From assembly GCF_001889405.1 (NCBI RefSeq), contig NZ_CP017921.1:222057-262056 (forward strand): a stretch of 40,000 nucleotides of DNA. Reading direction: 5' to 3'. The stretch comes from Methanohalophilus halophilus (GTDB taxonomy: Archaea; Halobacteriota; Methanosarcinia; Methanosarcinales; Methanosarcinaceae). Both the position numbers and the translations under genes were made by a program. The notes beneath the pieces were generated by a model. That model did not search any database and was not told the origin of the DNA. It saw only the letters and a program-made list of their open reading frames with translations. Shown one piece after another: positions 7,551 through 28,529 of the stretch (position 1 is its first letter; each line of letters starts with the position of its first letter).

Positions 7551-7586
7551 AACGTTACAACTAAAAACATTATCAAAGGTCCAACA

Positions 7587-9765: not shown

Positions 9766-10365
9766 GTTTTCGACAGTAAATTTTGGAGTTTGACGTCTTT
9801 AAAAACCAGTTAAGCCTAGAAGTAAATAATCATATATCAGCAGGCGGGTTATAATAATAAAGGATAATAAAACACAAAAAGTAAACAACAAGTTTATAAG
9901 GTAAAATAGTTTAAAATGTTAAAGTTTGACGGATTTGTGACGGCACTGTAAAAATTTATTTGAAAAATATGGTAGTGGTGAACACGGGCTTAGAATCATA
10001 TTGTCTGGAGTGACAGACCCGTGCTCATGGTAGTGGTGTGCCAGTGGAATTTGAAATCATTTAACAAAGGAAACAAAATCTTCAGATTATAACAATATAA
10101 TGGAAGTTGAAAAAAGTCTTTTAAATCTGAGTCAGAAACTGTTCATGTATGTCAGATCCAAAAAGATAAAAACGCATTAACAGTAATAGTTTTGTTGGGT
10201 TTAATAAAGAAGAAATATTGAAACATATTTTCACAAAAACAACCATTGATGGAAATACATCGCCTCCATTTATTTAATTTTTGTATCTCTAGCAGTTAAA
10301 TTGAATCATCAGAGACAGTGAATTGGTGGATAATTTTTCCGTAATGGAAAATATGATTGAATAGC

Positions 10366-11967
10366 TCATTCATAATCAAAACTATAATAAATATATTCAC
10401 CATAGGGTTCGTCTCCATCTGAATTACCTTCTTCATCTTTTATTTCAATCGGTGTTAATTGCTTATCTTCATCATAAAACGAGATATCATTCTCCTTCAG
10501 AACACTGAAATAATCATCATTATCTAAAAGACCTGAATCATTTGGCGTAATCCATCCTTTCATTGTTGCTTCATAAGTCAACAACCACTTATTTTCGTAT
10601 AGTGATTCTGATGTTAGTTCATCAGCTAAAAAAGATGTATCTAAATCTGAATCAAGTAAATTTTTGTTTATCAGATCCAACACCAAAACCTGTGGAATAA
10701 CATCATTAGAACGAAGAATCGTATTCGCAAAATTTGCTGGGATTTTTATTTCAAATGTCTTAGCCATCCATAAAATCCATGAAAGTTCATAAGAATGCTT
10801 TTTGTAAAGATGTTGACCAAGTAATGTATGAATCAGATCTTTTATTTTGTTTTGGTTTTTAAATTCCTTATAATACAATAAAATTTCTATAATTGGTTTT
10901 ATTGTTTTTGCATCCAATAAAGTGCATTTAAATAATAGCGATTCAAACAAATCCCAATTTGATTCATAAATTTCATATTCTTTTATTCTTCTGATCGCAT
11001 ACTTAAGTACATGTTCACTTCTGTGTTCATCGAACAAATCAAAGGCCAAATTAAAATATTTCCAAATATCTTTTTCTTGCATGGATTCGTTTTTCCTTAA
11101 AGAAAAAGTACTTAGAGATAAAACCCATGGATCATCATAAGCCATTGGATAATGATTAATAATTGTTTTTTGTTCGTTTAAGACTAATTGATACTCATTT
11201 AAAATAGATTGTAAATAGACAATAAGGTTGTCAACATGATCTCTGTTTGACAAATAGAAGCAATAATCATCATAGTACCTATAACCCTTAAGATCAGGGA
11301 ATTCTTCTTTAAGTTTTTGATCTATTGCACAAAGTATAATTTCAGCAATAATGTGAGAATTATCAGGCCCGGTAGGAATTCCATTTGTTTGGCCTGACTG
11401 ACACGCTCTCATATATTTATCTAGTACATTGCCATAATATCTTTGGTAATCATTACGATTGTTTTTTGCTTCCTCTTTGGTATGCAATGCCCACGGAATT
11501 GAATGTGTGTAAATAGAAGGGTAAAACCAGGAAATATCTGTTTTTAGTTCAAACATTCTATCATAAGAACAAGTAATACATTTCTTCTTATATTGCTGAA
11601 ATGAGTTTAGAGTTTGTATCGAACGTTTATTTTTTGGATTTTCAAAACAATTTTCGACGGGCCTGCTTGTAGAAAGTTCTGATTTACTACAATGAGCTTT
11701 TATTTCTGCCCAATTATCAATTATGAATTTTGATAAATAAAATTGAGATATGGGGTTCACAATACTTAGTTTTCTTCTAATATGATTCTTTTTAGGAATC
11801 AAGTAATCCGTAAGTTGTGTATTTGGTATTTTAGGAACATCATTTCTAGATGTCGGATTCCATTGTGAATCAATTATTTGATGTTTGCTTGCAAAAGATT
11901 CTGTTGAAAATGCAGGAGGTAGTTCTTTTGGAAAATATCCATTTTCAAGTAAATTTTTAAGATTCAT
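10366..11967 (-). CDS. Reverse transcriptase of the defence-associated UG/Abi type (AbiK/Abi-P2-like architecture: RT domain + helical-repeat C-terminus)
   Basis: 533-aa ORF. It has RT motif A (KTDISWFYPSIYTHSIPWAL), a motif B-like segment (NGIPTGPDNSHIIAEIIL) and motif C YxDD (GYRYYDDYCFY). The N-terminal GYFPKELPPAF motif and the ~250-aa helical C-terminal region match non-LTR, non-group-II, non-retron 'Abi' RTs. No maturase/X domain or En domain is visible. Confidence 0.8.
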   Translation of the reverse strand: MNLKNLLENGYFPKELPPAFSTESFASKHQIIDSQWNPTSRNDVPKIPNTQLTDYLIPKKNHIRRKLSIVNPISQFYLSKFIIDNWAEIKAHCSKSELSTSRPVENCFENPKNKRSIQTLNSFQQYKKKCITCSYDRMFELKTDISWFYPSIYTHSIPWALHTKEEAKNNRNDYQRYYGNVLDKYMRACQSGQTNGIPTGPDNSHIIAEIILCAIDQKLKEEFPDLKGYRYYDDYCFYLSNRDHVDNLIVYLQSILNEYQLVLNEQKTIINHYPMAYDDPWVLSLSTFSLRKNESMQEKDIWKYFNLAFDLFDEHRSEHVLKYAIRRIKEYEIYESNWDLFESLLFKCTLLDAKTIKPIIEILLYYKEFKNQNKIKDLIHTLLGQHLYKKHSYELSWILWMAKTFEIKIPANFANTILRSNDVIPQVLVLDLINKNLLDSDLDTSFLADELTSESLYENKWLLTYEATMKGWITPNDSGLLDNDDYFSVLKENDISFYDEDKQLTPIEIKDEEGNSDGDEPYGEYIYYSFDYE

Positions 11968-12112: not shown

Positions 12113-12587
12113 ATGACTTTACATTATGAGATAATTGCCGAAGAAAACATGTTGAAAATATTCCAGCCTTTATGCAATAACAAGATTGACTGCCACTACT
12201 TCCAATGTACTGGATAAATGCAAAGGTATTAATTATAACAAAGAACGGGAAGGACAGACCAAGCCATTAAGCAATACGATTCTTGAGTATGTGAATCATC
12301 CATAACATAAGTTTGAGGATTATATTGGTGTTCTTGAAAGGAAGCATATTGATATTGATGGTTTCGTGTATATTGGCAAAGAGGCCAATGAGATTGATGA
12401 GCAAACTATGGACGTTTCAAGGCCACAGAAATTCTTGAATAAGGGATATGTTATGCAGAAGATACTTGATTAATCTCAAAAACAGGATGAGGAATGGGGA
12501 GTAGATAGAAAGACGTTTCAGAGAATCAAGAAGAGGATAATTGAGAATAGTGACATTAAATTGAATACTGTTGCTGTAAAAAACTAA
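12113..12587 (+). pseudogene. Casposon PolB C-terminal fragment (frameshifted, internally deleted)
   Basis: Translations across frames give TLHYEIIAEE, SLYAITRLTATTSNVLDK, KPLSNTILEYVNHP*HKF and RKHIDIDGFVYIGKEANEIDEQTMDVSRPQKF. These are collinear with residues ~655-888 of the intact PolB at 21018-23684 (KLHYGIISEE, SLYAISQLTVSTSNVLDR, KPLSNTILEYIDHPEHKF, RKHIDIDGFVYIGKEANDIDEQELDVVRPQKF). The fragment contains stops, frameshifts and a large internal deletion. Confidence 0.85.
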
Positions 12588-12656
12588 CTTCATCTTTACT
12601 TAGTTAAAGTTAGTAATAAGAAAACGTTTTCTAATGTTAGAGATAATAAAAAAACT

Positions 12657-13532
12657 ATGACGCGGCTCAAAGAAAACACTATTAACCAATTATCACGCTT
12701 GATTTGTGGTGAGGATTTTGATTTTTTACCGTATCGCAAATCATCTCAATTAACTGATTTTTTTCAAGAGCTTGGTTTTGACTATACTCATGATGGATCT
12801 ACCCGAAGATATTGGGTAAGAGACGTGTTAAGCGAAATAAACACCGAAACACCTTCAGATTCCGTATTTCCGTCTCCAGAAATAATTGCTGTAATTGAAC
12901 ACATATTAAATCCAGTGAATTTTCTTGATCTTCCTGATTCTGAAGAAAAACAAAATTTAGGCATTGAACGTGTAAATAAGCTGTTATCTTTACAAGACTT
13001 GTTTGTTGAAAAAGAAGAAAACGGTGCTGTTCAACTTCATTCTAGAAAAGGTGACTTTGTATCTACATCAGTAAATAGGGATGAGAAAAAAAGAGTGATG
13101 ACTTTTTCTCCTTCTGTTTTTGAATTGCCTAAAGGTTCCACAATGAAAAACTGCGTTTCCATAATGATGCCTTTTTCGAAAGAATTTGATAATGTATATT
13201 CCGCAATAAAAGCAGCCTGTGTTAGCGAAGGAATACCCTTTCACAGAGCTGATGATTTCTGGAAAAATAGTGTCATAATTCAAGATATTTTTGAACTAAT
13301 ATGCCGTTCATCAATTGTTATTGTTGATTTTTCAAATAGAAATGAAAATGTATTTTATGAAGCTGGTATTGCCCATACTTTAGGAAAACATGTTATACCA
13401 ATAACTCAAAGTATCGACAGTATACCTTTTGATTTGAGACATCATCGGCATATAGTATATCTAAACAATGGCGAGGGTTTGAGAGGGTTAGAAAAAAAGT
13501 TGATTGACCGGCTAGCTTCTCTAAAAGAATAA
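12657..13532 (+). CDS. Two-domain protein: helical N-terminal domain + C-terminal TIR-like / nucleoside 2-deoxyribosyltransferase-like Rossmannoid domain
   Basis: 291-aa ORF. The C-terminal ~130 aa show the pattern VSIMMPFSKEFDNVY..I......G.PFHRADD...........I..SSIVIVDFSNRNENVFYEAGIAHTLGKHVIPI....D.IPFDL. This pattern is typical of TIR-like/deoxyribosyltransferase-like domains, with the conserved Glu in YEAG. Confidence 0.55.
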   Translation: MTRLKENTINQLSRLICGEDFDFLPYRKSSQLTDFFQELGFDYTHDGSTRRYWVRDVLSEINTETPSDSVFPSPEIIAVIEHILNPVNFLDLPDSEEKQNLGIERVNKLLSLQDLFVEKEENGAVQLHSRKGDFVSTSVNRDEKKRVMTFSPSVFELPKGSTMKNCVSIMMPFSKEFDNVYSAIKAACVSEGIPFHRADDFWKNSVIIQDIFELICRSSIVIVDFSNRNENVFYEAGIAHTLGKHVIPITQSIDSIPFDLRHHRHIVYLNNGEGLRGLEKKLIDRLASLKE

Positions 13533-13590
13533 GTTTTGGAGAGGCGATGTTATGAAAAAAGACAATTTCGTCTATAAAGGGGAGTAATAG

Positions 13591-13929
13591 ATGAGTCATG
13601 AAGAACATTCTAAAATAACAAACGGTATCTATGTGTCTTTTGGAGAATTTGTAATTAATTCTGAATTAGTTGTAGAAAATATGAAACTATGTATTTATGA
13701 AATGTTTAGTAAAAGAGTGCTTAGTAATACCTTTGAAGGGCAGCAGTACTTAAATCTACTTTTAGCAGATTTTACATCCGCCCCTGTCAGGATGAAAATG
13801 AGAGTACTCATGGTTGAATCCTATATTAAGTTATCCAGAGACAAAATTCTCTGGTTGTTTTTTATTATTCTGTATGAGAAATCAAAACAAAAAAATATAC
13901 AAAATATTCTCAAATGCAACCTTTCATAA
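13591..13929 (+). CDS. Hypothetical small protein
   Basis: 112-aa ORF preceded by a purine-rich SD-like ggggag about 8 nt upstream of the ATG. No recognisable motifs. Confidence 0.35.
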   Translation: MSHEEHSKITNGIYVSFGEFVINSELVVENMKLCIYEMFSKRVLSNTFEGQQYLNLLLADFTSAPVRMKMRVLMVESYIKLSRDKILWLFFIILYEKSKQKNIQNILKCNLS

Positions 13930-13990
13930 TACTCAATAATCTTCAGGCAATATAATTGTGAATTTTCCTATTTCGTTTATTGCAATATAG

Positions 13991-14156
13991 ATATTCTGCC
14001 GTATTCCACTGGGCAATTCTATCTCTCCTGCTGAAGCTAAAGAAATCGGGATTAATAGTAGGAGTACATTGAATAAATTGAAAAAATAGGGCGAAAGAAG
14101 GGCATTTTAATTTGAATACGAAGGAGATGAGGAAGATATCCTTAAGTTTAATTTAA
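13991..14156 (+). pseudogene. Second casposon PolB extreme C-terminal fragment (HTH tail), frameshifted
   Basis: Translation gives IPLGNSISPAEAKEIGINSRSTLNKLKK*. After a 1-nt frameshift it continues NRAKEGHFNLNTKEMRKISLSLI*. This aligns with the intact PolB tail ILGLTPEDARRIGIKHRSALAYLKKKAKEGELNFKSRNMERIMDAFM. Confidence 0.7.
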
Positions 14157-14176
14157 TTATTCTCTAATCTATTTAC

Positions 14177-15025
14177 TCAAATATGCTTATAAAGACCCAT
14201 TTTAATCTTCCCACCTTCACCGAATTCAAGCTCTGAAAAACTAACTCCTTCAAGAAAGGTCATATCTGAATCTTCATAGCGGATTATATCTGAAATCGGG
14301 AGCTTTTTTAGTTCCTTCCACAAATGAACTTCAGCAGTAAAACCTTTTAACTGATACATTTCAGTTTCAGAAATCTCCATTTTATAGATTTGGTCTTTAT
14401 CAGCAAATGCAACTTTCTTTTGAATTCGAATTCCATCTTCTGGAATATCTTTGAATATTTCACTTTGTTTTACAATTACTTCTTGATAGAACAGTTCGTT
14501 CAAAGATAACTTTTCATTATTGGACATGAATTTTTCTTCATCACTTTCAAATTTAATATTATTACCATTATAATCAACTAATTCAAAAGTAAGTATTTTT
14601 ATAATTTCATATTGCTTATGTATTACTGGTAGACAATCACCTAAAAACCAAGAATGGATATCTTCTTTGCCGATTTGACTTAACACTCGTGTTTCAATTC
14701 CATAATGTTTTGCCGTTGTTTTTGCTGGTTCTGTAAAATCGTTAGATGAAACAGCTATTACTTTTTGAACGTTGAGATTTTGACACTTTGTTGCTAATTG
14801 CTCAATCCACATTGAATCCTGTTTAGTATTTCGATCTCTGCATTCTATGATTATTGTTAAAGGTATGGAGCCAATGTTTGCTTTAATTGAGATATCAACT
14901 TCTCTTTGCTGCCCAGTAATTTTGTCGATTAGAAAATCTGGAGAGGTAATTTCATATTCGTCTTTTGTTAATATTTTATGTAGCAGAGAAACCGTTTCTT
15001 CTAATTCTTTCCCTTTTCGTGCCAT
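14177..15025 (-). CDS. Restriction-endonuclease-fold (Mrr-cat-like) protein with unknown C-terminal domain
   Basis: 282-aa ORF. The N-terminus reads GKELEETVSLLHKIL ... QREVDISIKA ... TIIIECRDRNTKQ ... VIAVSSNDFTEPAKTTAKHYGIE, which fits the D...(D/E)xK nuclease core of Mrr-type enzymes. The C-terminal ~140 aa are unassigned. Confidence 0.55.
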   Translation of the reverse strand: MARKGKELEETVSLLHKILTKDEYEITSPDFLIDKITGQQREVDISIKANIGSIPLTIIIECRDRNTKQDSMWIEQLATKCQNLNVQKVIAVSSNDFTEPAKTTAKHYGIETRVLSQIGKEDIHSWFLGDCLPVIHKQYEIIKILTFELVDYNGNNIKFESDEEKFMSNNEKLSLNELFYQEVIVKQSEIFKDIPEDGIRIQKKVAFADKDQIYKMEISETEMYQLKGFTAEVHLWKELKKLPISDIIRYEDSDMTFLEGVSFSELEFGEGGKIKMGLYKHI

Positions 15026-15180
15026 TAAAAATTAAATTAATTGTCATGGTTAAAAAAGTATCTGATAATGATTTCTTTTTAATGATAAATGTGGTTATTT
15101 GAGTTTTTTATTTTTGGGTAAAGGTGTACATTTTTTCTTAGGAAATTAAAAAAATGGTTGTGCGTACAGAGTGCAAAACG

Positions 15181-15211
15181 CCGTACACTTTTTTCGCGTT
15201 GTATATATCCC
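15181..15211. repeat. Degenerate casposon terminal inverted repeat (right end of decayed distal element)
   Basis: ccgtacacttttttcgcgttgtatatatccc aligns without gaps to the intact right TIR gcgtacaaaaaattggagataactatatccc (19/31 identical). The cgtaca block and the terminal tatatccc sit at the same spacing. It directly abuts a TSD copy. Confidence 0.6.
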
Positions 15212-15225
15212 AGAAAAATAGTGCG
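15212..15225. repeat. Target-site duplication copy 1 (agaaaaatagtgcg)
   Basis: Exact 14-bp match to 19588-19601 and 28530-28543. It lies between a TIR-like right end and a TIR left end. Confidence 0.85.
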
Positions 15226-15387
15226 GGGATATAGTTATCTTAGATTTTTTGTACGGTATCTGTATTCTTTGTTCTTACTTAAAATAGAATGATTTATTTT
15301 AATAGTGGTTTTATATATTTGACAATATATTAATTCAAAATATGTTTTGGTTTAAGAGAAATTATTTTGTACAAGTATATTTAATGA

Positions 15388-15750
15388 TTGGGTATGAAGA
15401 AAGATGAACTTTTTATTAGAGAGTTTATTGTTGGATTAGGCTTTGTAAGTGGTTTATGGATTGCTGTTGGAATAAATCCAGAATCCCTAATAATTGAACA
15501 ACTAGTAAAAATTGGGAATACATTAACACCAAAACATAATTTTGGGTTTCTATTAATACTACCAAGCATAACTACTTTAATATCAATTATAAGTGCGTGG
15601 TTTTATGGTGGAGTTTTGGGTATGATTGCTATATTACTTGCTTTTATTAGTGGCATACTAATAATTCATTTTACCATGATAGCATCTGTTTTTTTGATGC
15701 TTTCTTTATTATTGGCTTCATTATCTGTAGATAATAATTATACTTATTGA
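15388..15750 (+). CDS. Small integral membrane protein (about 3 TM helices)
   Basis: 120-aa ORF with hydrophobic stretches: VGLGFVSGLWIAVGI, FGFLLILPSITTLISIISAWFYGGVLGMIAILLAFISGILIIHFTMIASVFLMLSLLLASL. Confidence 0.55.
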   Translation: MGMKKDELFIREFIVGLGFVSGLWIAVGINPESLIIEQLVKIGNTLTPKHNFGFLLILPSITTLISIISAWFYGGVLGMIAILLAFISGILIIHFTMIASVFLMLSLLLASLSVDNNYTY

Positions 15751-15764
15751 ATTGATTCATGGCC

Positions 15765-16070
15765 TTAATAAACATAATTAATAAGATAGTTATTGAGATT
15801 AGATATGGTTTTGTATTGTAATTCTATTAAGTCAGGTAATTTTTTAACAATTGGTAGTTCTTGGCTATAAATACTTGTGGGATATATGACATTTCTAAGC
15901 CTTGATTTGCTATTACTTTTTGTTCTTATCGGATAACGTGATAATATTGAATGAGTTAGTGGGATTTTTGCTAAAACATAAAGTGGTCCCAATACACTTA
16001 TGAATTTAAGGGCCTGCAATATTATTTTTTTTATATCAATCGAAAGTTGCAGTAATTGTGAGTCATTCAA
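15765..16070 (-). CDS. Hypothetical protein downstream of the HEPN gene
   Basis: 101-aa ORF located 6 nt downstream of the HEPN gene stop on the same strand. It has no recognisable motifs and is not an MNT nucleotidyltransferase (no GS...D.D motif). Confidence 0.4.
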   Translation of the reverse strand: MNDSQLLQLSIDIKKIILQALKFISVLGPLYVLAKIPLTHSILSRYPIRTKSNSKSRLRNVIYPTSIYSQELPIVKKLPDLIELQYKTISNLNNYLINYVY

Positions 16071-16076
16071 TTCAGA

Positions 16077-16664
16077 TTAAATATTAACAGATCCCAATTG
16101 TTCTTTATCTATATATTCACATTTCTCAAAATTACTAACTAATTGATTTATATTGTCTTTCCATTGTTTTAGATCTATCGAAGATTGATCTAAGGATTCA
16201 ATACTTTTTTTAATAGAAATTTCTAATTCAGAGACACTCTGAAAAATATCATTTATCTCGCGGGTTGATAAGAAATAAGGATTACGCTTAGATTTTTGCA
16301 TCTTGCCAATTTCCCGCAAGCCATTTTCACAGTGTACTATATTTTCTTCAGGTGATATTTCAATCAAAGAAAATATTTCATTAATTTCTGGAATATGATT
16401 AAGTAATTTAGCAGATCTTTGATATTTTTCTTTTTGGTCAATAAGCATTCTTTTATATATTTCCATAGGATCGTGTCTGATTTCTAGCATGGATTCTTCA
16501 TCGAATTTTCCAGAAGATAAAGCAAGTGCTTTGTTTGCCTTTTCCACACTTTGGGCAAAGAAAAAGATTGATTGTGGATAACATTTATTTTCATATAATA
16601 CAACTGAAGATTTTAAATCAGATTTTGCGAGTTTTACAAATTCTTTTACATATTTCATACTCAT
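16077..16664 (-). CDS. HEPN domain protein
   Basis: 195-aa all-helical ORF. The N-terminal signature AKSDLKSSVVLYENKCYPQSIFFFAQSVEKANKALAL is the classic HEPN helix 1-2 pattern (A..DL..A........y.....a.Q..EKa.KA). Confidence 0.65.
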   Translation of the reverse strand: MSMKYVKEFVKLAKSDLKSSVVLYENKCYPQSIFFFAQSVEKANKALALSSGKFDEESMLEIRHDPMEIYKRMLIDQKEKYQRSAKLLNHIPEINEIFSLIEISPEENIVHCENGLREIGKMQKSKRNPYFLSTREINDIFQSVSELEISIKKSIESLDQSSIDLKQWKDNINQLVSNFEKCEYIDKEQLGSVNI

Positions 16665-16705
16665 TCTCTCGTATATAATTATGCCATATTTATACCTTCA
16701 CTCAA

Positions 16706-19601: not shown

Positions 19602-19632
19602 GGGATATAGTTATCTCTAATTTTTTGTACGC
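19602..19632. repeat. Casposon left terminal inverted repeat
   Basis: See the casposon feature (19602-28529). This TIR matches the reverse complement of 28499-28529 at 30/31. Confidence 0.9.
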
Positions 19633-19845
19633 TAAGTATTTACAGACTTATTTAAATTAACTACTGGGTTAATCTTTTAAATTGAAACCCAGATAAATGT
19701 ACAGAACGTTCAATTCACATCTTCTTTTAAAAGAGTGTCACTTTTTCGCAAAAGGAACATTTTTATAATAAACGGTTTATGATCCATTATCATTATACTT
19801 TTTTATAAAATGATGTAATATATCATGTTAAATATAGTTTGATTA

Positions 19846-20787
19846 TTGGGTGGTATTATGTATTGCCATAATTGTGGTTCAGAAATAGATGATAATGATG
19901 CTGCATTTTGCTCAAAATGTGGAACTAAAATCAAAAAAATAGAAAAAGAAATATTGTCCTCTACACTTGATGTAAAAAATGAAGAAAGTAGGAAGGATGA
20001 ATCATATATTGAGTTAGATACAGCCAACCAAAATAACACATCTATTAAAAAAGAAAATCCAGATTCGTGGGTTTTTATAAAAATATGTGCATATATAATT
20101 TGTGCTGTGGTTATTTCTTCCTTATTTATAGGCCTGTATAATATTGGTAGTGATTTTTATGGGGGTGAGGGAGCGTTTGTACAAGGTGAAGGTGGAGAAG
20201 GATTCGTTGCTTCAAATTCTGATATTACCCATAGCTTAACACAAGAACAAAAAAACACTCAAATTTGTGAAGAAATTGTACAAAACTACTATGAAACCCA
20301 TACATACGTATCGGATGATGTTTTTGATTGCGATAACATGGCAATGGATGTTTGGAATTTAGTAGAAAGTAAAGGAATAAATGCTGAAATTGCCGTGGGT
20401 AATGTAGATATGAAGGATGCAAATTTAGAAGATATCAATCATGCTTGGGTAATAGCAGAAGTTTCACCACAAAATTGGGTAGCTATAGAATGTACCAGTG
20501 GTTATCTTACATATGATGATGTGTATTATTCGGGTTGGTTCTTTGACAACCCTAAAAACTATCAAAGTTTTTTAAATGTATATACCACTTGGGAATATAA
20601 ATATCAAGAATATGAAAATTATAGATTATATTATAATGAATTGGTTGAACAGTTTAATGAGGCTGATGCCTATGAGCAAGCCTCACTAAGAAGTGGTCTT
20701 GAAATTGCAAGAGAAAATCTTCATCAAAAAGAAAGAGATTTTTTACAGGCTAAAACCGAATTAAATGCATTATTAGAATATGGGTAA
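19846..20787 (+). CDS. Zinc-ribbon / TM / transglutaminase-like cysteine-protease-fold protein (casposon cargo)
   Basis: 313-aa ORF whose likely true start is the ATG at 19858 (MYCHNCGSEIDDNDAAFCSKCG zinc ribbon). It has one TM helix (WVFIKICAYIICAVVISSLFIGLY). A Cys...His...Glu/Asp arrangement (FDCDNMAMDVWNLVESKGINAEIAVG ... INHAWVIAEV ... WVAIECTSG) resembles the transglutaminase-like core. Confidence 0.6.
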   Translation: MGGIMYCHNCGSEIDDNDAAFCSKCGTKIKKIEKEILSSTLDVKNEESRKDESYIELDTANQNNTSIKKENPDSWVFIKICAYIICAVVISSLFIGLYNIGSDFYGGEGAFVQGEGGEGFVASNSDITHSLTQEQKNTQICEEIVQNYYETHTYVSDDVFDCDNMAMDVWNLVESKGINAEIAVGNVDMKDANLEDINHAWVIAEVSPQNWVAIECTSGYLTYDDVYYSGWFFDNPKNYQSFLNVYTTWEYKYQEYENYRLYYNELVEQFNEADAYEQASLRSGLEIARENLHQKERDFLQAKTELNALLEYG

Positions 20788-21017
20788 ATATCATTATGAA
20801 ATTGAATATATTTCAAAAACATCTTTCCAGAAAACTTCAAGGACTGCAACAATTAAAATTACAGTTTCATCGCGAAAAGCTTTATTGTTTAAATTATTGA
20901 TTTTTTCAAAATTTATTTCAAATGCTTTGTTAATATCTTGTATTCATGGATTTTATCATTTTGAGACATAAACAAAATAATGTATGTCAACACTTATTGT
21001 TTTATTGATTCAGAGCT

Positions 21018-23684
21018 TTACATAAAAGCATCCATAATTCTCTCCATATTCCTACTCTTAAAATTCAACTCTCCTTCCTTTGCTTTTTTCTTCAAGTAAG
21101 CCAAAGCACTCCTATGTTTAATTCCAATCCTTCTGGCATCTTCAGGAGTTAAACCAAGAATAAACTTCTCCACTGCTTTTCCATCAATGAACTTTTGAGG
21201 TCTTACAACATCCAACTCCTGCTCATCAATATCATTGGCCTCTTTACCAATATACACAAACCCATCAATATCAATATGTTTTCTTGCAAGAGTGCCAGTA
21301 TCACCCCCAAACTTATGCTCTGGATGATCTATATACTCAAGAATCGTATTGCTTAATGGCTTGAAATAGTAAGATCCTTGCCTGACTTCTCCAGTCTGAT
21401 AATCAATAAAAGACTCATAAACTATCTTCTGATAATCCTTAGTAAAAGGTGCTAAAGGCTTGACAACCTTGTCATTTTCTTCTGTTGTCTGAAACCCAAC
21501 CAGAAAGAAATTGAATGGTTTGATCTGTTCTCTCCATTCCTTGACAGCATTAAGATCCTTGAATCTATCCAATACATTGGAAGTACTGACAGTAAGCTGA
21601 GAGATTGCATACAGGCTAGAATATTTCTCAACAATATCTTCCTCAGAAATAATCCCATAATGTAACTTGAGTATATCTTGCCAAATTTCAGCCTGCCAAT
21701 CTTCAACATCCTTTGGAAACGGATTTGTTAAATGACCAAGCCCATGAAGTTTGTAAGATCTCTCTCCTTCCATGAACTCAATTTTATCCTTGTTTAAGTT
21801 GTAGAGTGCATATCTCTTGGAAGAGATCCCATAAAACCACATATCCTCTTTCTCAGGCTTCAATAAAGGAATATCCAGAGCATAAGGATTCAATGGCTGG
21901 AAATAATCAACTATCTCCTGTGCATTTTCAGGAGGAACAAAGATTGAATCTGTATCCATATAAGCATGAGTTCCACCAAGTTCTTTGAGTCTGGCTTCAG
22001 CCATAGCCAGAAAAAGCCTTGAACCTGCTGTAATCATGACTGCCACAAAAGGATGATAGAAATTACCTGGCTTTTCAAACCTATTCTCTGAAGTACTGAA
22101 ATCATCAAGCCCATAAACCTGAATATCACTTTTCTTATCTTCTGGATTAAGTTCAATAAAGATCCCATAACTCATTGCGTTAACAAGAATCTTGATGGCC
22201 TGTGCTCTGCTCTTTAGATGTTGATATTCAGGATCTTTTTTATCAAGACTTTTCATATCCTGTTTTATCTTTTGCCTTTCCTCAACCATTATCTTGGTTA
22301 GGCTTTCTTTGGATGGATCAATATTTATTCCAAGTATCTCCTGAATGTTCAAGTCATCCTGAATCCCAACAGGAACAAACTTGACAGCCTCTATGATCTC
22401 AGGGGTCTTTCCAGTTAATAGGACAGAACCGATAACATCAGGCAAAGCATACCATAAACCATCTTTAGAACTTACATGATTTAATCCAACATTATAACTC
22501 TCATTCTTGCCTTTGTAATCCATCCTTACAGGCAATATATCCTCATCTGGTTTCAATTTAACAAGGATATTGAAATGAGGCCAGTTATCTGGATTTTGTA
22601 AATAATCAAGATCTATATTGGAAAGAATCTTTTTTGCTTCCTCTGTTGCATCTTCAGTCTCAATCCTGTCAGCAATCAAAAATGGCCAGAGATCCAACAT
22701 TAAAGTAATAGTAGGATACATACTGGTAAAATCAAGAACTGTAACTTGGGTTGGTGTTTTCCTGATCTTGCATTCACACCTGCCACCAAAATAAGCAGTC
22801 ATTATATTTCCTAACATCTCAGGAGAGAAATCAGGATTCTTTTCTAAAAATGGGTTTATTCCAATTTGTTTCATGGCATGTTTACCAAGAGAAGCAGCAC
22901 TAAACACTCTGGTTATGGGTATATCAATACCATAAAGATCCAGTTCTTTCACAAGTTCCCTGTAAACTTCAAAAGTAGTTTTGACATCAGTTACAAGATA
23001 GTCAATATACTTCTCAGTAACTCGGCCATGTTTTATATTCTTCTTTTTCTTAATGTTGGTATTGAGCCTCTCTCCTACCTTATCAAGTGAAATATGATTC
23101 TTTGATTGAAGGAGTACTTCAGCCAGTTTTTGAGCATCTAAAAAGTATCCCCCAAAATACTCTTTACCCTTGTTTTGCTTGGTTGTTGTGAATTTGAAGG
23201 AATAAGCAGTACCAAGTTTTTTGATAACAATTGGGGGTTTAACTCTATCATCTGACAGAGTAAGAGTAAACCCACCTTTGTTTTTCCCTCTGGAATTTCC
23301 AGATCTCTTGGCTATCCTGCTTATATCAAAGGCCAGATTGAATCCAACACATAAAGTTTGGAAATCATATACCTCTGTATAGAACACATTATCTACAAAA
23401 TCAGATAGAGTATAGATAGATATAGTATGTCTAGATGCATAGATATTCAAGGCTCTTGTTTCCCTTACATCCAGCATTGAAGGATCATAAAATAACCCTT
23501 CATGCTGAATATAGCCATCCTGATATATCTGGAAATATCCAATTTTCATGTTTTGGTACTGGTCTGTTGTAGTCTCAGTATCAAAGACCAATACTCTATC
23601 ATGTCTCAAAGGTGTGGTTGGAGTTTCACCCTTCCATGCTTTCTTTTCTTTGTGGGTGTATCCCCTCACAGCAACCTTAGTCAT
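21018..23684 (-). CDS. polB: Protein-primed family B DNA polymerase (casposon PolB)
   Basis: 888-aa ORF with Exo I (VLVFDTETT), Exo II (GFNLAFDISRI), Pol motif B (KILVNAMSYGIF), Pol motif C (HAYMDTDSIFV) and a C-terminal HTH-like tail. Confidence 0.93.
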   Translation of the reverse strand: MTKVAVRGYTHKEKKAWKGETPTTPLRHDRVLVFDTETTTDQYQNMKIGYFQIYQDGYIQHEGLFYDPSMLDVRETRALNIYASRHTISIYTLSDFVDNVFYTEVYDFQTLCVGFNLAFDISRIAKRSGNSRGKNKGGFTLTLSDDRVKPPIVIKKLGTAYSFKFTTTKQNKGKEYFGGYFLDAQKLAEVLLQSKNHISLDKVGERLNTNIKKKKNIKHGRVTEKYIDYLVTDVKTTFEVYRELVKELDLYGIDIPITRVFSAASLGKHAMKQIGINPFLEKNPDFSPEMLGNIMTAYFGGRCECKIRKTPTQVTVLDFTSMYPTITLMLDLWPFLIADRIETEDATEEAKKILSNIDLDYLQNPDNWPHFNILVKLKPDEDILPVRMDYKGKNESYNVGLNHVSSKDGLWYALPDVIGSVLLTGKTPEIIEAVKFVPVGIQDDLNIQEILGINIDPSKESLTKIMVEERQKIKQDMKSLDKKDPEYQHLKSRAQAIKILVNAMSYGIFIELNPEDKKSDIQVYGLDDFSTSENRFEKPGNFYHPFVAVMITAGSRLFLAMAEARLKELGGTHAYMDTDSIFVPPENAQEIVDYFQPLNPYALDIPLLKPEKEDMWFYGISSKRYALYNLNKDKIEFMEGERSYKLHGLGHLTNPFPKDVEDWQAEIWQDILKLHYGIISEEDIVEKYSSLYAISQLTVSTSNVLDRFKDLNAVKEWREQIKPFNFFLVGFQTTEENDKVVKPLAPFTKDYQKIVYESFIDYQTGEVRQGSYYFKPLSNTILEYIDHPEHKFGGDTGTLARKHIDIDGFVYIGKEANDIDEQELDVVRPQKFIDGKAVEKFILGLTPEDARRIGIKHRSALAYLKKKAKEGELNFKSRNMERIMDAFM

Positions 23685-24018
23685 GTTTCATCAACTCATG
23701 TCCATAACTGAGCAACTGATCCCCTATACCCCTGAGTAATGCACCAACTGAGATAAACCAAAATCCCCTCTGTTCAATAGGTTTGGCCTTTTTTGACCTT
23801 TTTTTAGGACTTACCTTGTTCTGTTCTGCTGTAGTTTTGAAATGGCAGCTCTTGCATAGAGGAATTGTTTCATCAGAATTGCATCTACCATAAACATGAT
23901 GCATCTCTATGACAGAAAGATCATCCTCTCCACATTCAACACAACAAAGAGATGTTTGCTTGTTTCTCTTCTGCTTCCTTGTAGCCTTTAGATATGTTTC
24001 TTTATCCATCTGTATCAC
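23677..24018 (-). CDS. HNH endonuclease
   Basis: 113-aa ORF with CCVECGEDDLSVIEMHHV ... TIPLCKSCHFKT (HNH/zinc-finger signature). It overlaps the PolB start by 8 nt, which suggests translational coupling. Confidence 0.85.
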   Translation of the reverse strand: MIQMDKETYLKATRKQKRNKQTSLCCVECGEDDLSVIEMHHVYGRCNSDETIPLCKSCHFKTTAEQNKVSPKKRSKKAKPIEQRGFWFISVGALLRGIGDQLLSYGHELMKHD

Positions 24019-24023
24019 CTCCT

Positions 24024-24665
24024 TTAGCTCTTGTAAATCTCCAGAAATTCAGGTTCTTCAATAGTTTCTCCAATTTCATACAGTCTCTCAAGGCTGGTCT
24101 CAAGTCTGTACTCGTTACCATCAGCATCCTTTATCTTCATATCCTTGAACTTCTCAAGACCTGAAGGATCTCCTGTTTTCAAGGCCTTCTGTACAGCAGC
24201 AAAATATTTTCCAATCCTTGATCTATCTCTGGAATTGGTGACAACAATACTGGTTACTCCTTCATCTTCAGAGTAGATCAGCATTTCAGACTGAATAGAA
24301 TCAGTTTTTGTGACCTGCCATCTGCCACCCTCTTTTTCCAGATGTGTTCCAAGATGCTTGAGAGCAAACTGTTTGTTTACTCCAAGTTTACTGGTGGCCT
24401 CACTCAGAGTTTTACCATGTCTCATTTTCCTCAAAATTTCAAGGGATAGGTTTCTATCCCTTTTCTGACTTGAAGACAGGTTTTGCCATACTGTATTGCT
24501 GAGGTCATAATCACTTATCTTCAGATTCCTTAATTGCTTCAGACTTTTATCAGGGGAATACTGATGTTTCCTGATTATCCCCTTTGCATACCTGGAAGTC
24601 CTTGATTGAGCATTGAGCCACTCACCATAGGTTCTGTGCTTTCTGGAGAAACGTGGTCTTCCCAT
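24024..24665 (-). CDS. HTH DNA-binding protein (casposon core-associated)
   Basis: 213-aa ORF with an HTH-like segment KTLSEATSKLGVNKQFALKHLG. It is in the same operon as HNH and PolB. Confidence 0.6.
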   Translation of the reverse strand: MGRPRFSRKHRTYGEWLNAQSRTSRYAKGIIRKHQYSPDKSLKQLRNLKISDYDLSNTVWQNLSSSQKRDRNLSLEILRKMRHGKTLSEATSKLGVNKQFALKHLGTHLEKEGGRWQVTKTDSIQSEMLIYSEDEGVTSIVVTNSRDRSRIGKYFAAVQKALKTGDPSGLEKFKDMKIKDADGNEYRLETSLERLYEIGETIEEPEFLEIYKS

Positions 24666-24805
24666 TATTTCTCAGCCTCCCAGAGTTTCAGTAATGCTAT
24701 CCTGATAACTTCAGCCTGAGAGCATCCAAACTTATCTGACAACTGTACAAGTGTCTCCTTGAGATAAGGAGAAAGTGTTGTTATTATTCTTTCACTTTCA
24801 TTCAT
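24665..24805 (-). CDS. Small ribbon-helix-helix (CopG-like) protein, absent from the supplied ORF track
   Basis: Manual translation of the minus strand gives MNESERIITTLSPYLKETLVQLSDKFGCSQAEVIRIALLKLWEAEK* (46 aa). This is a beta-strand followed by two helices with the typical S..EVIR.AL pattern. Its TAA overlaps the ATG of the next gene by 1 nt (ATAATG). Confidence 0.5.
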   Translation of the reverse strand: MNESERIITTLSPYLKETLVQLSDKFGCSQAEVIRIALLKLWEAEK

Positions 24806-24939
24806 TGGTTTTCACCAATAGACTGTATGTACAGCCATACTGATATTAACAATGATATTGATTTTAATACTAAAATGAGCATTAATGATATAAACCATAA
24901 CAAATATGATATTATATTAGATAGTGAGAGGTAGAAATA

Positions 24940-25848
24940 TTGATACAAAATGAGGCTGATTTTGAGGAGGAAGTTGTTCAGTATTTAAACAAGAATGGCA
25001 AGATGCGAAGAGAGCAGTTGATTAAAGTACTTATTGAGGCGCATACACAAACAAACGAAAAAGGAGACAAATTTGTAGATGGTGGATATAGTAAACCCAC
25101 AATTAATAGAAAACTTGGAGATATGCTTGGATCTGGTAAAATCATAAGATTGAATTACCACCAGCTTAAAAACTATGGCTTTTCTGAAGATGATGGGAGG
25201 GCAACATATCTGTTTACTGAGGAAGGGCTACGATTGAAGACACATATTGATGAGGTACTCAAGCTTCTTGCTTCAGATGATGAAATTGATAAACAGATTG
25301 CTTTGAAAGAATTAAACCGATACAGTGAAATTTACTCTTTTGATGAAACTCAGCTAGATTTAATCGTGCAAAATCTAGCCTCCAAGAACGCAGAATTGAC
25401 AAACAAGTTTCTTACTACTCTCAAAAATTACATCATCAACAGAGGAAAAGAGCCGACGGATAAAAAAGCCTTGTTGAACGCTCTAAAGATCGTGCTGGAG
25501 AAGCATGGAGAACCAGCCGGAAAAAACAAGGTCACTAGAGAAGTGGCCATCCTTTTACTTAGCCACTATAAAGACGAATATGTACTTGACCAGCTCATCA
25601 AAGATGCAAATGCCTTGGATAATCCTCTAGAAGTAGAAGAGGATTATGCCCATGACCCTTCGATGATTGCTGATATTATCATAAAAAATCCTTCAAGACT
25701 ATTTGAGGCTGAAAGGCAATTGACAAAAGAAGGAAAATATGATGCTTCTCAGTTCATTTCAAATATAAGGGGTCGGTGCATGAGGGCATTTCGAATGAAT
25801 GATGCTGAAAAAGCAGAGATTCAGAAAAAACTAGAAGAGGAGTTATAA
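24940..25848 (+). CDS. Hypothetical protein, N-terminal winged-helix-like domain + helical repeats
   Basis: 302-aa ORF with a TTG start preceded by gagagg. The N-terminus reads VVQYLNKNGKMRREQLIKVLIEA ... YSKPTINRKLGDMLGSGKIIRL, which is wHTH-like. Its stop overlaps the Cas1 start (TAATG). Confidence 0.5.
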   Translation: MIQNEADFEEEVVQYLNKNGKMRREQLIKVLIEAHTQTNEKGDKFVDGGYSKPTINRKLGDMLGSGKIIRLNYHQLKNYGFSEDDGRATYLFTEEGLRLKTHIDEVLKLLASDDEIDKQIALKELNRYSEIYSFDETQLDLIVQNLASKNAELTNKFLTTLKNYIINRGKEPTDKKALLNALKIVLEKHGEPAGKNKVTREVAILLLSHYKDEYVLDQLIKDANALDNPLEVEEDYAHDPSMIADIIIKNPSRLFEAERQLTKEGKYDASQFISNIRGRCMRAFRMNDAEKAEIQKKLEEEL

Positions 25849-27050
25849 TGAAACTCCTTTTATTGAATGGTCATGGAATCGATATGCGGGTGAGCGGGGC
25901 AAAACTGCATATCAAGGATGGTAGGTTCACTACTGCTGAAGATCCTCAGAAGTATGTATTCCATCCCAAAAGGGTAGATGTGGATAATGTTGTTATCTAT
26001 GGGCAGAGTGGCAATCTTACAATTGAGGCTATCAGATGGTTGATCAAACATAATGTTCAAATTACAGTTCTGGATTGGAATGGAAAACTCCTTACTACAA
26101 TGTTACCTTCTGAAAGTACCAATGTCAAAACCAAGTTTGCTCAGTATCATGCTTTTGAAGATGAACAAACCAGAGTTAAACTGGCAAGGAAGTTTATTGA
26201 GGCCAAGATCTCCAAATCTGAGAGTGTTCTTGAGTATTTAAAACAGAGATATCCTGAGATTGAGTTTGATTTTTCAGAAGATCTTGATAAACTTAAAAAG
26301 ACAAAATCTGTCAGGGAAATTCTTGGTATTGAGGGTGGAGTTGCATGGAAGTACTGGAAAGAGTATGCTAAAGCAATTCCTGAAAAATATGAGTTTAATT
26401 CAAGGGTTGATGAATACAGGAGGCCTGTGGCAGCAGGAGATAAGGTTAATGTAATGCTGAATTATGGTTACTCACTCCTTGAGGCTGAATGTTTAAGAGC
26501 CATTAATACTGCTGGTCTTGATGGACATGTAGGCTTCTTGCATGAAATGAATCCAAGTAAATACAGTTTAGCCTATGACCTTCAAGAGCCTTTCAGATTC
26601 CTTGTTGAACTTACAGTTCTGAATTTGATTGAAAGAGATGTGATGGATAAACAGGATTTTATCAGAACTGAGAACTATGGTTTAAGGTTTAAACCGACTG
26701 GTGCTAGAAAATTAACCTCTGAGTTTAACGTTATGTTAAACAGGAGTTTAACGTATAAAGGTAAAAACTCATCATGGAGTTATATCTTGTTGTTGAAAAC
26801 AAGAGAACTGGCTTTTTATCTTACGGGTAGAAGGAAGACTTTGGAGTTTGTCGATCCAGTCTATAAGGTTGAAAGGGATGATTCTGAGGAGTTGAGGCAG
26901 AAGATCCTCTATATGCCTTACTCTGAGTGGAAGAAGATGGGTTTTTCTAAGGGTACTCTTCATTACATGAAGCAGAATGCTAAGTCTGGTAAGCCTTTTA
27001 GTTTAAATGCCCATGTGAGGGAGAGGTTGGAGATGTGGGAAGTACATTAA
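25848..27050 (+). CDS. cas1: Cas1-family integrase (casposase) with C-terminal HTH
   Basis: 400-aa ORF with Cas1 signatures: GIEGGVAWKYW (catalytic Glu region), NVMLNYGYSLLE, GLDGHVGFLHEM (His) and SLAYDLQEPFR (Glu/Asp). A C-terminal HTH-like tail (WKKMGFSKGTLHYMKQNAKSG) is typical of casposases. No cas2, other cas genes or CRISPR array are present in the window. Confidence 0.92.
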   Translation: MKLLLLNGHGIDMRVSGAKLHIKDGRFTTAEDPQKYVFHPKRVDVDNVVIYGQSGNLTIEAIRWLIKHNVQITVLDWNGKLLTTMLPSESTNVKTKFAQYHAFEDEQTRVKLARKFIEAKISKSESVLEYLKQRYPEIEFDFSEDLDKLKKTKSVREILGIEGGVAWKYWKEYAKAIPEKYEFNSRVDEYRRPVAAGDKVNVMLNYGYSLLEAECLRAINTAGLDGHVGFLHEMNPSKYSLAYDLQEPFRFLVELTVLNLIERDVMDKQDFIRTENYGLRFKPTGARKLTSEFNVMLNRSLTYKGKNSSWSYILLLKTRELAFYLTGRRKTLEFVDPVYKVERDDSEELRQKILYMPYSEWKKMGFSKGTLHYMKQNAKSGKPFSLNAHVRERLEMWEVH

Positions 27051-27163
27051 TTAAGTATATTTTTTTACACAAAAAGGTGAATATAAGCAACTATATTTTT
27101 TATATAATTTTATATCTTATAGACTACAAAAATGATTTATAGAATTTTGTTTCATTTATACAT

Positions 27164-27838
27164 ATGCATAGTTTGGAAGTAGTCACTCTTTTTTTACAAG
27201 CAATTGTAACTCTGTATGCATTTTTCTTTGCAGTATATGCGCTTGGGATAAAAAAATATGCTAAAAATATTACTTATCATTCTTATTTTGACGCAATATC
27301 ATTAGCAGTTTTAAGTTCTATATTTATATATACTTTAATGCTGTTCATTTATTCACAAGATTTAAATTTATTATCTTTTTATATTCATATCAATATATTA
27401 GAAATTATATTGAGTTTTATAGAACGTTCAAATATTAATTATTTTAATGTTGCATATAGTATATTCATTTTTATAATCGGATTGATGTTTATATATGCAA
27501 AGATTTTACTGGATTTGAATAAGTCAGAAGAAAGATTTTCCCAAAAAATAAGTAATATTCAGCTAGAAAAGGGGAAGGTAAAACCATTATTTAAAATAAC
27601 TTATTACATCTTTAAATATTACTTGTCTAACATGGGGATCTATGGAAATTTAGTATTTATTTTAATGTTAATTTTTCTTGTTTTACAATTTCCAGAGATA
27701 TCCTTTTTCGGATTAATTACATTTATTATTGGAGTTTATTTGTTTTTAGGGGCTTTTATTTTTATAACAACATTAATCATATTTTGTGTTTCATTTTGTA
27801 AAGTAAGACTACTCCAAAATAGACTGAAGCATCTCTGA
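27164..27838 (+). CDS. Polytopic membrane protein (casposon cargo)
   Basis: 224-aa very AT-rich ORF with at least 5 hydrophobic helices. No family assignment. Confidence 0.5.
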   Translation: MHSLEVVTLFLQAIVTLYAFFFAVYALGIKKYAKNITYHSYFDAISLAVLSSIFIYTLMLFIYSQDLNLLSFYIHINILEIILSFIERSNINYFNVAYSIFIFIIGLMFIYAKILLDLNKSEERFSQKISNIQLEKGKVKPLFKITYYIFKYYLSNMGIYGNLVFILMLIFLVLQFPEISFFGLITFIIGVYLFLGAFIFITTLIIFCVSFCKVRLLQNRLKHL

Positions 27839-28048
27839 GGCCACATAAACATAAAAAGAACTTACATAGTATAATTATTTTTAATTATGCAGATGCTTTG
27901 AAAACGTATTATTCTTGTTCAATTACTTAAATAATATTTGAGATAATATTACAAAATCTAGTGCTTTTAAAGATAACTTTAAGTAAAATATTATTTCTAA
28001 AAATATTACAAAAGATTCAAATAAATTCTTATAAAAATATATTAGATA

Positions 28049-28435
28049 TTATTCTGCTCGAACTTTATCAATTTTTAGGTTGATTTTTCCATTTTTACTT
28101 TTTAATTCATGCCATTCGCTGTTTGTTAAAGTTACAGAATGAGTTCTTTTCTTTTGCACATTCGCCCCATCCCTAACTGTACCAAAATATATTGTATTCG
28201 TTTCTAAGATTCTATTATCGAAAAGAAGTGAATAATCAACCTGGACATTATCAGCATCCATTGTGCCAATATTTGTAGTATCGAAATAACATTCCACAAT
28301 TATATTGTCATTTGATAATGTGTTATATTCATAAGTGTTTTGTCCATCAACAATAACTTCATAATTACCTGTACAACCTGATATAAATACTATGCAAATA
28401 ATGGATAGAATGAGTGTCGTTTTATTACAAAACAT
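28049..28435 (-). CDS. Putative secreted/lipobox protein (casposon cargo)
   Basis: 128-aa ORF with an N-terminal signal-like helix ending in FISGCTG (lipobox-like Cys). Confidence 0.5.
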   Translation of the reverse strand: MFCNKTTLILSIICIVFISGCTGNYEVIVDGQNTYEYNTLSNDNIIVECYFDTTNIGTMDADNVQVDYSLLFDNRILETNTIYFGTVRDGANVQKKRTHSVTLTNSEWHELKSKNGKINLKIDKVRAE

Positions 28436-28498
28436 ATATTTTTAATATGTACTCCTAATATATATATTTTTTATATGCCCTAGATTTTACATAAAATA

Positions 28499-28529
28499 GC
28501 GTACAAAAAATTGGAGATAACTATATCCC
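28499..28529. repeat. Casposon right terminal inverted repeat
   Basis: gcgtacaaaaaattggagataactatatccc is the reverse complement of 19602-19632 with one mismatch. Confidence 0.9.

Follow-up and report, generated by a model that had tools for sequence, protein, structure and literature searches.

A candidate one-protein abortive-infection gene with a TIR/NDT-clade enzyme domain among casposon remnants of Methanohalophilus halophilus

The closest described counterparts of the gene considered here come from the survey of Anantharaman et al. 2013 (Biol Direct 8:15), in which AbiJ-NTD1, a mostly helical N-terminal domain (NTD) of ~140 aa, was reported as fused to AbiJ/HEPN, S/T/Y kinase, restriction endonuclease (REase), HKD and 'flavodoxin fold nucleoside deoxyribosyltransferase' domains, and in which such NTDs were proposed to be sensors restraining a toxic enzyme (PMC3710099). 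A protein of the same two-domain design, to which the same logic of a sensor gating a toxin would apply, is encoded in a 40,000-nucleotide stretch of the genome of Methanohalophilus halophilus (NZ_CP017921.1, positions 222,057 to 262,056; hereafter the window), among casposon remnants at a tRNA-Leu gene. This 291-aa protein joins an NTD to a C-terminal domain (CTD) related both to Toll/interleukin-1 receptor (TIR) domains and to nucleoside deoxyribosyltransferases (NDT), that is, to the clade that Aravind's group defined as TIR-DrHyd (PMC9503650). Since the fusion of AbiJ-NTD1 with NDT was listed in 2013, the architecture had already been predicted by then. What is new about the present protein is that it is archaeal and casposon-linked, whereas the 2013 entry is a catalogue prediction; the identity of its NTD with AbiJ-NTD1 has its sole basis in matches to the hidden Markov models (HMMs) of Stk2 and AbiJ. 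We read the protein as a predicted self-contained abortive-infection (Abi) module, in which a sensor would gate an N-glycosidase acting on NAD+ or nucleotides and which would have travelled as a casposon passenger, and on the sequence and model comparisons given below we consider this fairly probable.

Several other systems resemble one or the other half of the protein. In Stk2, the staphylococcal abortive-infection kinase (PDLC02375), the N-terminal ~130 residues are alike and the design is likewise that of a single-protein Abi system. However, the effector of Stk2 is a Ser/Thr kinase, whereas that of our protein would be a TIR/NDT-like enzyme, and the likeness is weak (positions 2-128 of the PADLOC Stk2 model match aa 5-133 with E 1.1e-3). 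NDT, DNPH1 and MilB have the same fold as the CTD and carry their Glu in the same [WY]-E-x-G-x-A...G-K-x-[VI] context, but the strand-1 motif of our protein is M-M-P-F and not A-G-P-x-F, and it stays below the Pfam cut-off. Compared with NDT, it also has invariants specific to its own family (R197, W202, Q209-D210, N229, N231, H240, Q251, R264 and Y268). TIR NADases (SARM1, SPARTA TIR-APAZ, TIR-STING and CBASS TIR) again share the fold, with E235 of our protein falling on their catalytic Glu, yet the W-x-x-x-E context, a Pfam TIR match and an associated cyclase, Argonaute or NLR module are all missing. Both TIR and DrHyd domains serve as NADase effectors (PMC9503650). The effector of retron Ec86, an NDT-like domain depleting adenine derivatives, shows that such a domain can be antiphage, although our gene lies outside any retron.

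As for the genomic setting, the closest parallel is provided by the family-2 casposons of Methanosarcina (Krupovic et al. 2016, PMC4779613), which are found in tandem at tRNA-Leu, with inactivated PolB and a reverse transcriptase (RT) passenger. The elements of the window resemble them in the use of the tRNA-Leu 3' end as the target, in the 14-bp target-site duplication (TSD) shared by adjacent units, in the stops that PolB has accumulated in older copies and in variable passengers, RT among them. On the other hand, a passenger of the NDT/TIR-like kind is not mentioned there, and in the unit that holds our gene, Cas1, most of PolB and the left end are gone.

The protein and its family

The open reading frame (ORF) of 291 codons is intact and starts with ATG (Table 1). 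In DNA of ~32% G+C, as found around the gene, stops are frequent, and therefore an open frame of this length is not due to chance; the PolB-derived DNA directly upstream has stops throughout, in every frame. The annotated gene model (P0001) gives a product of 235 aa, or 81% of the ORF, while the true product begins 56 residues earlier: homologues align from residue 1, which shows the start of the 291-aa frame to be the right one and the annotated gene to be too short. Every motif quoted in an earlier sequence-only reading of this DNA was found in the translation, namely LICGEDFDFLPYRKSSQLTDFFQELGFDY (aa 15-43), MPF (171-173), RAD (197-199), IVIVDFS (220-226), NVFYEAG (231-237), GKHVI (243-247) and PFD (257-259). 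The gene is single-copy in the 2.02-Mb genome. Its nearest homologue with DNA available, L143, is 74% identical at the aa level and lies beside a tRNA-like sequence recognised by eye; similarity between the two loci is confined to the coding sequence. With this homologue, dN/dS is 0.15 over the whole gene, the NTD (0.22) being above the CTD (0.10), and judged by these ratios the gene is under purifying selection. The AlphaFold2 (AF2) model of the whole protein, built on an alignment of 45 homologous sequences (A1), has a mean predicted local distance difference test score (pLDDT) of 86.5.

Fold comparison with the CTD led to TIR and NDT structures alike. The top matches of Foldseek against the PDB, with E values of ~3e-4 to 2e-3 and probability 1.0, were an NDT (8pqp), DNPH1 (8rpt and 4fyh), SPARTA TIR-APAZ (8qlp and 8oz6) and the SARM1 TIR domain (6o0u). 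VIA, which is independent of Foldseek, placed aa 161-291 closest to the TIR domain of Hydra TRR-2 (4w8h, Z 13.5), MilB (4ohr, Z 13.3; 124 residues aligned, rmsd 2.6) and Bacillus NDT (6evs, Z 13.0; 115 aligned, rmsd 2.2), followed by the TIR domains of MAL (5uzb, 12.9) and RPS4 (12.8), TIR-STING (12.7) and SARM1 TIR (9hq0, 12.1). Generic flavodoxin and receiver folds scored ~Z 10, below the Z of 11-13.5 seen for TIR, MilB and NDT.

Profile-profile comparison gave the same picture. For hhalign we used two archaeal sets, 28 proteins passing the cut-off of PF05014 (Nuc_deoxyrib_tr) and 30 passing that of PF13676 (TIR_2). The CTD scored 95.4% with TIR_2 (E 1.8e-8, 121 columns) and 94.0% with NDT (E 1.4e-7), the score of these two sets against one another being 97%. 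In these alignments, E235 coincides with the conserved catalytic Glu of both archaeal NDT (G-T-A-W-E-A-G-Y-A) and TIR_2 (W-V-T-E-E-L), and D224 with the Asp at the end of the NDT 'LDG' strand. E235 is invariant in A1 (45/45). In 152 aligned domains taken from 147 diverse representatives, the Glu column holds E in 146 of the 150 aligned residues and the D224 column holds D in 148. The PADLOC model for the CBASS 'Effector TIR' (PDLC00733) also matches all 45 homologues, the best of them at 1.5e-11. By sequence profile and modelled fold, then, the CTD belongs to the TIR/NDT (DrHyd) clade and has kept the catalytic Glu, along with a dense array of polar residues that do not vary. The sequence-only reading had proposed just such a domain with a conserved Glu, and both halves of that proposal held, the searches pointing to no unrelated housekeeping family. 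The local motif Y-E-x-G-x-A-x-x-x-G-K-x-V-I is nearer to NDT/DNPH1, whereas the coverage of the whole domain is better with TIR_2. Neither TIR nor NDT can be chosen over the other from these comparisons: fold scores are tied, profile-profile scores run at 95% vs 94%, and TIR_2 and NDT themselves score higher with each other. In our reading, the CTD is a branch of its own within the TIR-DrHyd clade, as yet unnamed and standing between TIR and NDT, and its catalytic apparatus is intact.

The NTD, folded alone, gave a confident AF2 model (pLDDT 91.8, pTM 0.87) of six helices and a beta-hairpin. It resembles the N-termini of Stk2 and AbiJ, that is, the AbiJ-NTD type, as suggested by HMM matches among the homologues: 10 of the 45 match the Stk2 model (best 3.3e-7), one matches PADLOC AbiJ and one Pfam AbiJ_NTD3 (at 0.02). 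The clusters of the ESM Atlas nearest to our protein are named 'AbiJ N-terminal domain-containing', and in some of them Pfam AbiJ_NTD5 stands ahead of a part that, given the size of these clusters' proteins and their similarity in features, appears to be this same enzyme domain. A homologue search with the NTD alone recovered close relatives only, and fusions of this NTD to other effectors are therefore inferred from the HMM matches. The PANGU/NAP preprint, considered because of a possible shared sensor, turned out to have no bearing on the protein. The earlier suggestion that the N-terminal part could be a sensor thus finds backing in likeness to the Stk2 kinase and to AbiJ. Between the two domains, pLDDT drops below 50 at aa 133-146; the residues that lead into the CTD (F150, P152, F155 and P158) are invariant in A1, and the motif they form is kept in a second casposon-linked protein (see below) despite its unrelated N-terminus. 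As a side observation, the sub-threshold structural neighbours of the NTD (VIA Z 3.6-4.7, within the stated noise of the tool) are mostly of the death fold: CARD, DD, PYD and the bacterial death-like 8ss1. Noise level as they are, these rows would fit an assembly or adaptor role of the modelled NTD.

The family to which the protein belongs is very large and patchy across archaea and many bacterial phyla, and our copy is an accessory gene. With a word-indexed search, 3665 relatives were recovered at E<=1e-3. The best 120 of these are mostly ~290 aa long and 45-76% identical, their sources being Methanosarcinales, Methanoperedens and Heimdallarchaeia besides metagenome contigs without a name; a few relatives are called 'AbiJ N-terminal domain-containing protein' or 'nucleoside 2-deoxyribosyltransferase' (JGI) in their sources. 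Full-length bacterial homologues, such as those of Stutzerimonas (L008), Idiomarina (L012) and Flavobacterium (L036), are 45-49% identical. All 45 invariant columns of A1 are retained in our protein, including M170, P172, R197, W202, Q209, D210, D224, N229, N231, Y234 and E235 as well as G237, H240, G243, K244, P248, Q251, P257, R264 and Y268. When 1.84 billion cluster representatives were searched with the profile, 25,178 matched at E<=1e-3, most of them only over aa ~145-291 and within proteins of 170-865 aa. Ten matches have TPR, PP2C/SpoIIE, tyrosine-integrase, metallophosphatase, CHAT, CDC48_N or PMT domains ahead of the module, and in two proteins it stands in tandem with a region matching Pfam Nuc_deoxyrib_tr. 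Since most matches cover the CTD only, and since no fewer than 8 different N-termini precede it, the CTD is best described as a mobile enzyme module. It occurs in 69 plasmid records, 33 of them conjugative and all annotated as 'hypothetical protein', and, weakly, in seven phage records. Closer to home, the protein was not found in 5 other genomes of the genus, and its full-length form has only 1 other copy among 60 genomes of the family. It is unusual to find such a module fused to tyrosine integrases, a CHAT protease, a metallophosphatase, a PP2C phosphatase and a CDC48 N-domain (P0165, P0175, P0216, P0197, P0157 and P0140), and it may respond to other triggers or serve other purposes there.

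Genomic setting

Three units stand in tandem at the tRNA-Leu gene: an intact casposon, a cargo-only unit and an older remnant, whose end is at 15211. The TSD, the 14-bp sequence AGAAAAATAGTGCG, is present in exactly three copies, at 15212, 19588 and 28530, each directly after an end reading ...TATATCCC. Our gene lies in the oldest and most eroded part of this stack, outside the intact casposon. The PolB pseudogene upstream of it (remnant A) forms an inverted repeat with 21189-21665 inside the intact PolB (74-82% nucleotide identity) and, in tblastn, is 41% identical to the intact PolB at the aa level (E 4.5e-28), with in-frame stops. Downstream of the gene, fragment B shows collinear DNA similarity to the 3' end of the intact PolB over ~115 nt. 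Weak as the evidence for it is, fragment B suggests that what remains at 12113-15211 comes from two wrecked casposon copies. If this is the case, the terminal inverted repeat ending at 15211 may belong to the copy bearing the Mrr-like gene and not to that of our gene. For the element of our gene itself, neither a left terminal inverted repeat nor a fourth TSD was found in the window, and its unit has no Cas1, the sole Cas1 of the window sitting in the intact unit. A TSD-like sequence at 14080-14093, with 3 mismatches, was rejected as a TSD because it lies inside PolB-derived sequence.

The intact unit carries a passenger gene between its PolB 3' end and the terminal repeat, which puts our gene in the equivalent cargo position. 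Most likely, our gene arrived as a passenger when a family-2 casposon inserted at tRNA-Leu, the element decaying afterwards. The sequence-only reading had described the gene as casposon-borne. Of this, the cargo slot next to PolB stands; the unit itself is older and eroded and its left end is lost, and the link to casposons is drawn from position and from the second case described below. The neighbours named in that reading, a PolB remnant, an RT and a gene of the REase fold (Mrr_cat), were all recovered at their places (Table 1). The RT scores near-equally on the PADLOC models Drt4 (2e-194) and Drt6 (4e-173) and occupies the place expected for the body of the eroded PolB.

The second casposon-linked case is a locus of a Methanosarcinaceae metagenome-assembled genome (L055, also numbered L208; positions 6808-9907). 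Judged by its sequence, it is another decayed family-2 casposon at tRNA-Leu, with a right terminal repeat nearly identical to that of the window. Over aa 176-333, the 341-aa protein encoded there is 58% identical to aa 136-290 of our protein, and its N-terminus is unrelated. The presence of the same enzyme module in this casposon implies that the module has entered casposons at least twice, and the cargo slots differ, being on the PolB side in the window and on the Cas1 side in L055. In both loci, a Mrr_cat gene is the last one before the terminal repeat. The two Mrr_cat proteins have no pairwise similarity, carry the domain at opposite ends and are encoded on different strands, so that the presence of Mrr_cat at both casposon ends could be either coincidence or recurrent pairing.

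To judge by its neighbours across the family, the gene is a solitary one, having no conserved neighbour. We scanned 80 genome loci and 71 metagenome/family loci with homologues of the protein (~150 in all). By tblastn, no relative of the 112-aa ORF downstream (orf112), of the Mrr-like gene or of the RT stands beside a homologue in any of these loci, and the idea that one of the three is a partner gene was rejected on this ground. Clustering of the ORFs within 4 kb of 49 full-length homologues gave no neighbour family present in >3 loci, the exceptions being antisense shadow ORFs and the synteny shared within a single group of close relatives in Spirosoma/Cytophagales. Partners known from multi-gene TIR systems (ThsA, CD-NTase and short pAgo) do not recur in the 49 full-length loci, and none is found beside the copy in the window.

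Proposed function and competing explanations

If the protein is indeed an abortive-infection module, the NTD would hold the enzyme off at rest. A cue of viral or plasmid origin, which, as with Stk2, is most likely a protein, would then change the state of the NTD and probably drive the formation of a dimer or oligomer. NDT and TIR enzymes need a dimer or oligomer for a complete active site. Once assembled, the enzyme might cleave the N-glycosidic bond of an abundant nucleotide, either NAD+, if it behaves as TIR-like, or adenine/deoxynucleotides, if it behaves as NDT-like effectors do. The nucleotide pool would be depleted, and the infected cell would stop growing. A role in defence is supported by the location of the gene in mobile DNA among defence genes.

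It is tempting to go further and speculate that casposons of Methanosarcinales repeatedly acquire and spread single-protein immune genes, and that the enzyme constitutes a third, still unnamed branch of the clade, with a substrate of its own, captured at least twice with different sensors and in both cargo slots. This broader scenario we hold to be possible but rather doubtful. If it is true, Cas1-driven transposons would serve as carriers of innate immunity in archaea, the very lineage in which CRISPR adaptation is thought to have been seeded by them. Even short of that, the gene and its counterpart in L055 are concrete evidence that casposons can carry passengers of innate immunity, which bears on the movement of defence genes in methanogens. 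To our knowledge, abortive-infection genes in archaea are almost unstudied. The family has no Pfam model and is 'hypothetical' almost everywhere. One biochemical result would annotate thousands of genes; the substrate, together with a requirement for E235, would show to what extent TIR and NDT chemistries overlap.

Several observations weigh against the abortive-infection reading. The protein misses the Pfam models of Nuc_deoxyrib_tr and TIR_2 entirely, and the assignment of its domain therefore rests on the profile-profile and fold evidence. Searches of Pfam, NCBIfam and PDB sequences with the protein or its 45-sequence profile gave no usable match. PF05014 (gathering cut-off 28.8 bits) gives no match to the protein at E<=1, and a six-frame search of the genome with this model missed our gene and recovered two other, true members. 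The TIR models (TIR_2 PF13676 and TIR PF01582) do not match the protein at E<=1 either; PF13676 has no match in its genome at E<=1e-8 and none among the 45 homologues at E<=0.05. As to the NTD, its link to Stk2 and AbiJ is weak for this particular sequence, and it has no structural match in the PDB (Foldseek E>0.6; best VIA Z 4.7). Furthermore, most of the 90 genes directly next to homologues have housekeeping roles, and a minority are of defence or mobile kinds (SIR2, BrxH/DruE-like helicases, a type I S subunit, integrases, a transposase and several PADLOC candidate systems), which makes the 'defence island' signal across the family modest. Finally, the host element has decayed, and the gene could be a leftover irrelevant to the strain.

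Related to this last point is the explanation of a functionless relic, left intact by luck or by recent arrival and silent or irrelevant in a decaying element. The gene does sit in the most eroded part of the stack, beside pseudogenes, and is missing from the other searched genomes of the genus. However, its frame of 291 codons has stayed open in DNA of 32% G+C, next to a PolB riddled with stops, every invariant position of the family is kept and the dN/dS against its nearest relative is low, so we see only a slim chance of its being a relic. Another explanation, a housekeeping enzyme of nucleoside or nucleotide salvage (a true NDT or a DNPH1/MilB-like hydrolase), is highly improbable. It would account for the JGI name 'nucleoside 2-deoxyribosyltransferase' of some homologues, for the weak PF05014 matches in 11 of the 45 (best E 0.002) and for the resemblance of the [WY]-E-x-G-x-A...G-K-x-V motif to NDT/DNPH1. 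Yet the genome already has two bona fide, ordinary PF05014 genes elsewhere, and PF05014 is matched in 8/8 genomes of the family searched, whereas our gene is sporadic, has an Abi-type N-terminus, falls below the Pfam cut-off and lies in mobile DNA.

Two further explanations were considered. A selfish module, that is, an addiction-like toxin or a weapon against rival elements that favours retention of the casposon, would fit the presence of the same enzyme domain in two independent casposon remnants at tRNA-Leu, its abundance on plasmids, many of them conjugative, and its fusions to integrases. What makes it unlikely is that no antitoxin-like conserved partner accompanies the gene, that most full-length homologues are chromosomal and away from casposon genes and that, in the window, the gene has outlived its element. 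Alternatively, the TIR-like domain might make or sense a nucleotide signal as part of a multi-gene system, with orf112 or the Mrr-like nuclease as the effector or antitoxin. TIR enzymes can generate signals, as ThsB does (PMC9503650), and in both casposon-linked cases the next real gene towards the element end is of the Mrr_cat type. Nevertheless, no other homologue locus examined has orf112, the Mrr-like gene or the RT, the two Mrr_cat proteins have no detectable relation beyond the domain and differ in architecture and strand, and a PolB fragment separates our gene from the Mrr gene of the window; such a system seems to us quite unlikely.

Feature coordinates and minor observations

Table 1. 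Features of the window, and of locus L055 where so marked, with the evidence for each
Feature	Coordinates	Strand	Basis
Gene for the 291-aa protein (sensor-type NTD, linker, TIR/NDT-clade CTD)	12657..13532	+	ATG-started ORF, homologues, AF2
NTD, aa 1-~132, presumed sensor/regulator	12657..13052	+	AF2, HMM matches
Linker, aa ~133-160	13053..13136	+	low-confidence stretch, then F150-x-P152-x-x-F155-x-x-P158
CTD, aa ~161-291, TIR/NDT (DrHyd) clade, predicted N-glycosidase	13137..13529	+	Foldseek, VIA, hhalign, PADLOC
E235 codon, predicted catalytic Glu, in N-V-F-Y-E-A-G-I-A-H-T-L-G-K	13359..13361	+	hhalign and conservation
DRT-type reverse transcriptase	10366..11967		PADLOC
PolB 3' pseudogene (remnant A), aa 687-867 of the intact casposon PolB	12156..12536	+	ends ~120 nt before the ATG of the 291-aa protein
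112-aa ORF (orf112) downstream of the gene	13591..13929	+	no Pfam, NCBIfam or PADLOC match
Short PolB 3' fragment (fragment B)	14021..14140	+	tblastn aa 845-866, E 0.19; weak
282-aa Mrr_cat (PD-(D/E)xK) nuclease-fold gene, last before the element end	14177..15025	-	Pfam Mrr_cat E 1.9e-5, above cut-off
Degenerate right terminal inverted repeat ...CGTACA...TATATCCC, ending 15211, with exact 14-bp TSD AGAAAAATAGTGCG at 15212-15225	15178..15225	+	alignment of all element ends
Cargo-only unit, 4.4 kb	15226-19587		terminal inverted repeats present, no Cas1 or PolB
Intact casposon	19602..28529	.	33-nt terminal inverted repeats 97% complementary, PolB, Cas1
Passenger gene of the intact casposon, 313 aa, between PolB 3' end and terminal repeat	19846-20787		
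PolB of the intact casposon	21018-23684	-	intact gene
Cas1 of the intact casposon	25848-27050		only Cas1 in the window
tRNA-Leu(tag), abuts the intact casposon	28539-28624		
L055: frameshifted Cas1 remnant	6808-7351		
L055: 341-aa protein	7476-8501		
L055: 304-aa Mrr_cat protein	8685-9599		
L055: right terminal inverted repeat	9674-9706		
L055: tRNA-Leu(cag)	follows the repeat		

Other parts of the window hold a few features that deserve mention in their own right. The type I restriction operon contains, between hsdR (1307-4063) and hsdS (5550-7550), a 500-aa ORF (4085-5587) that has no Pfam match and may be an embedded accessory or defence gene. The specificity subunit of the same operon (5550-7550) shows a weak ASCH match (E 1e-4, aa 10-77) ahead of its Methylase_S repeats. 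In the cargo-only unit, a 38-nt inverted repeat, 87% complementary and with a 5-nt spacer, is present at 16706-16786, between divergent genes for a HEPN protein and a 754-aa methylase-like protein.

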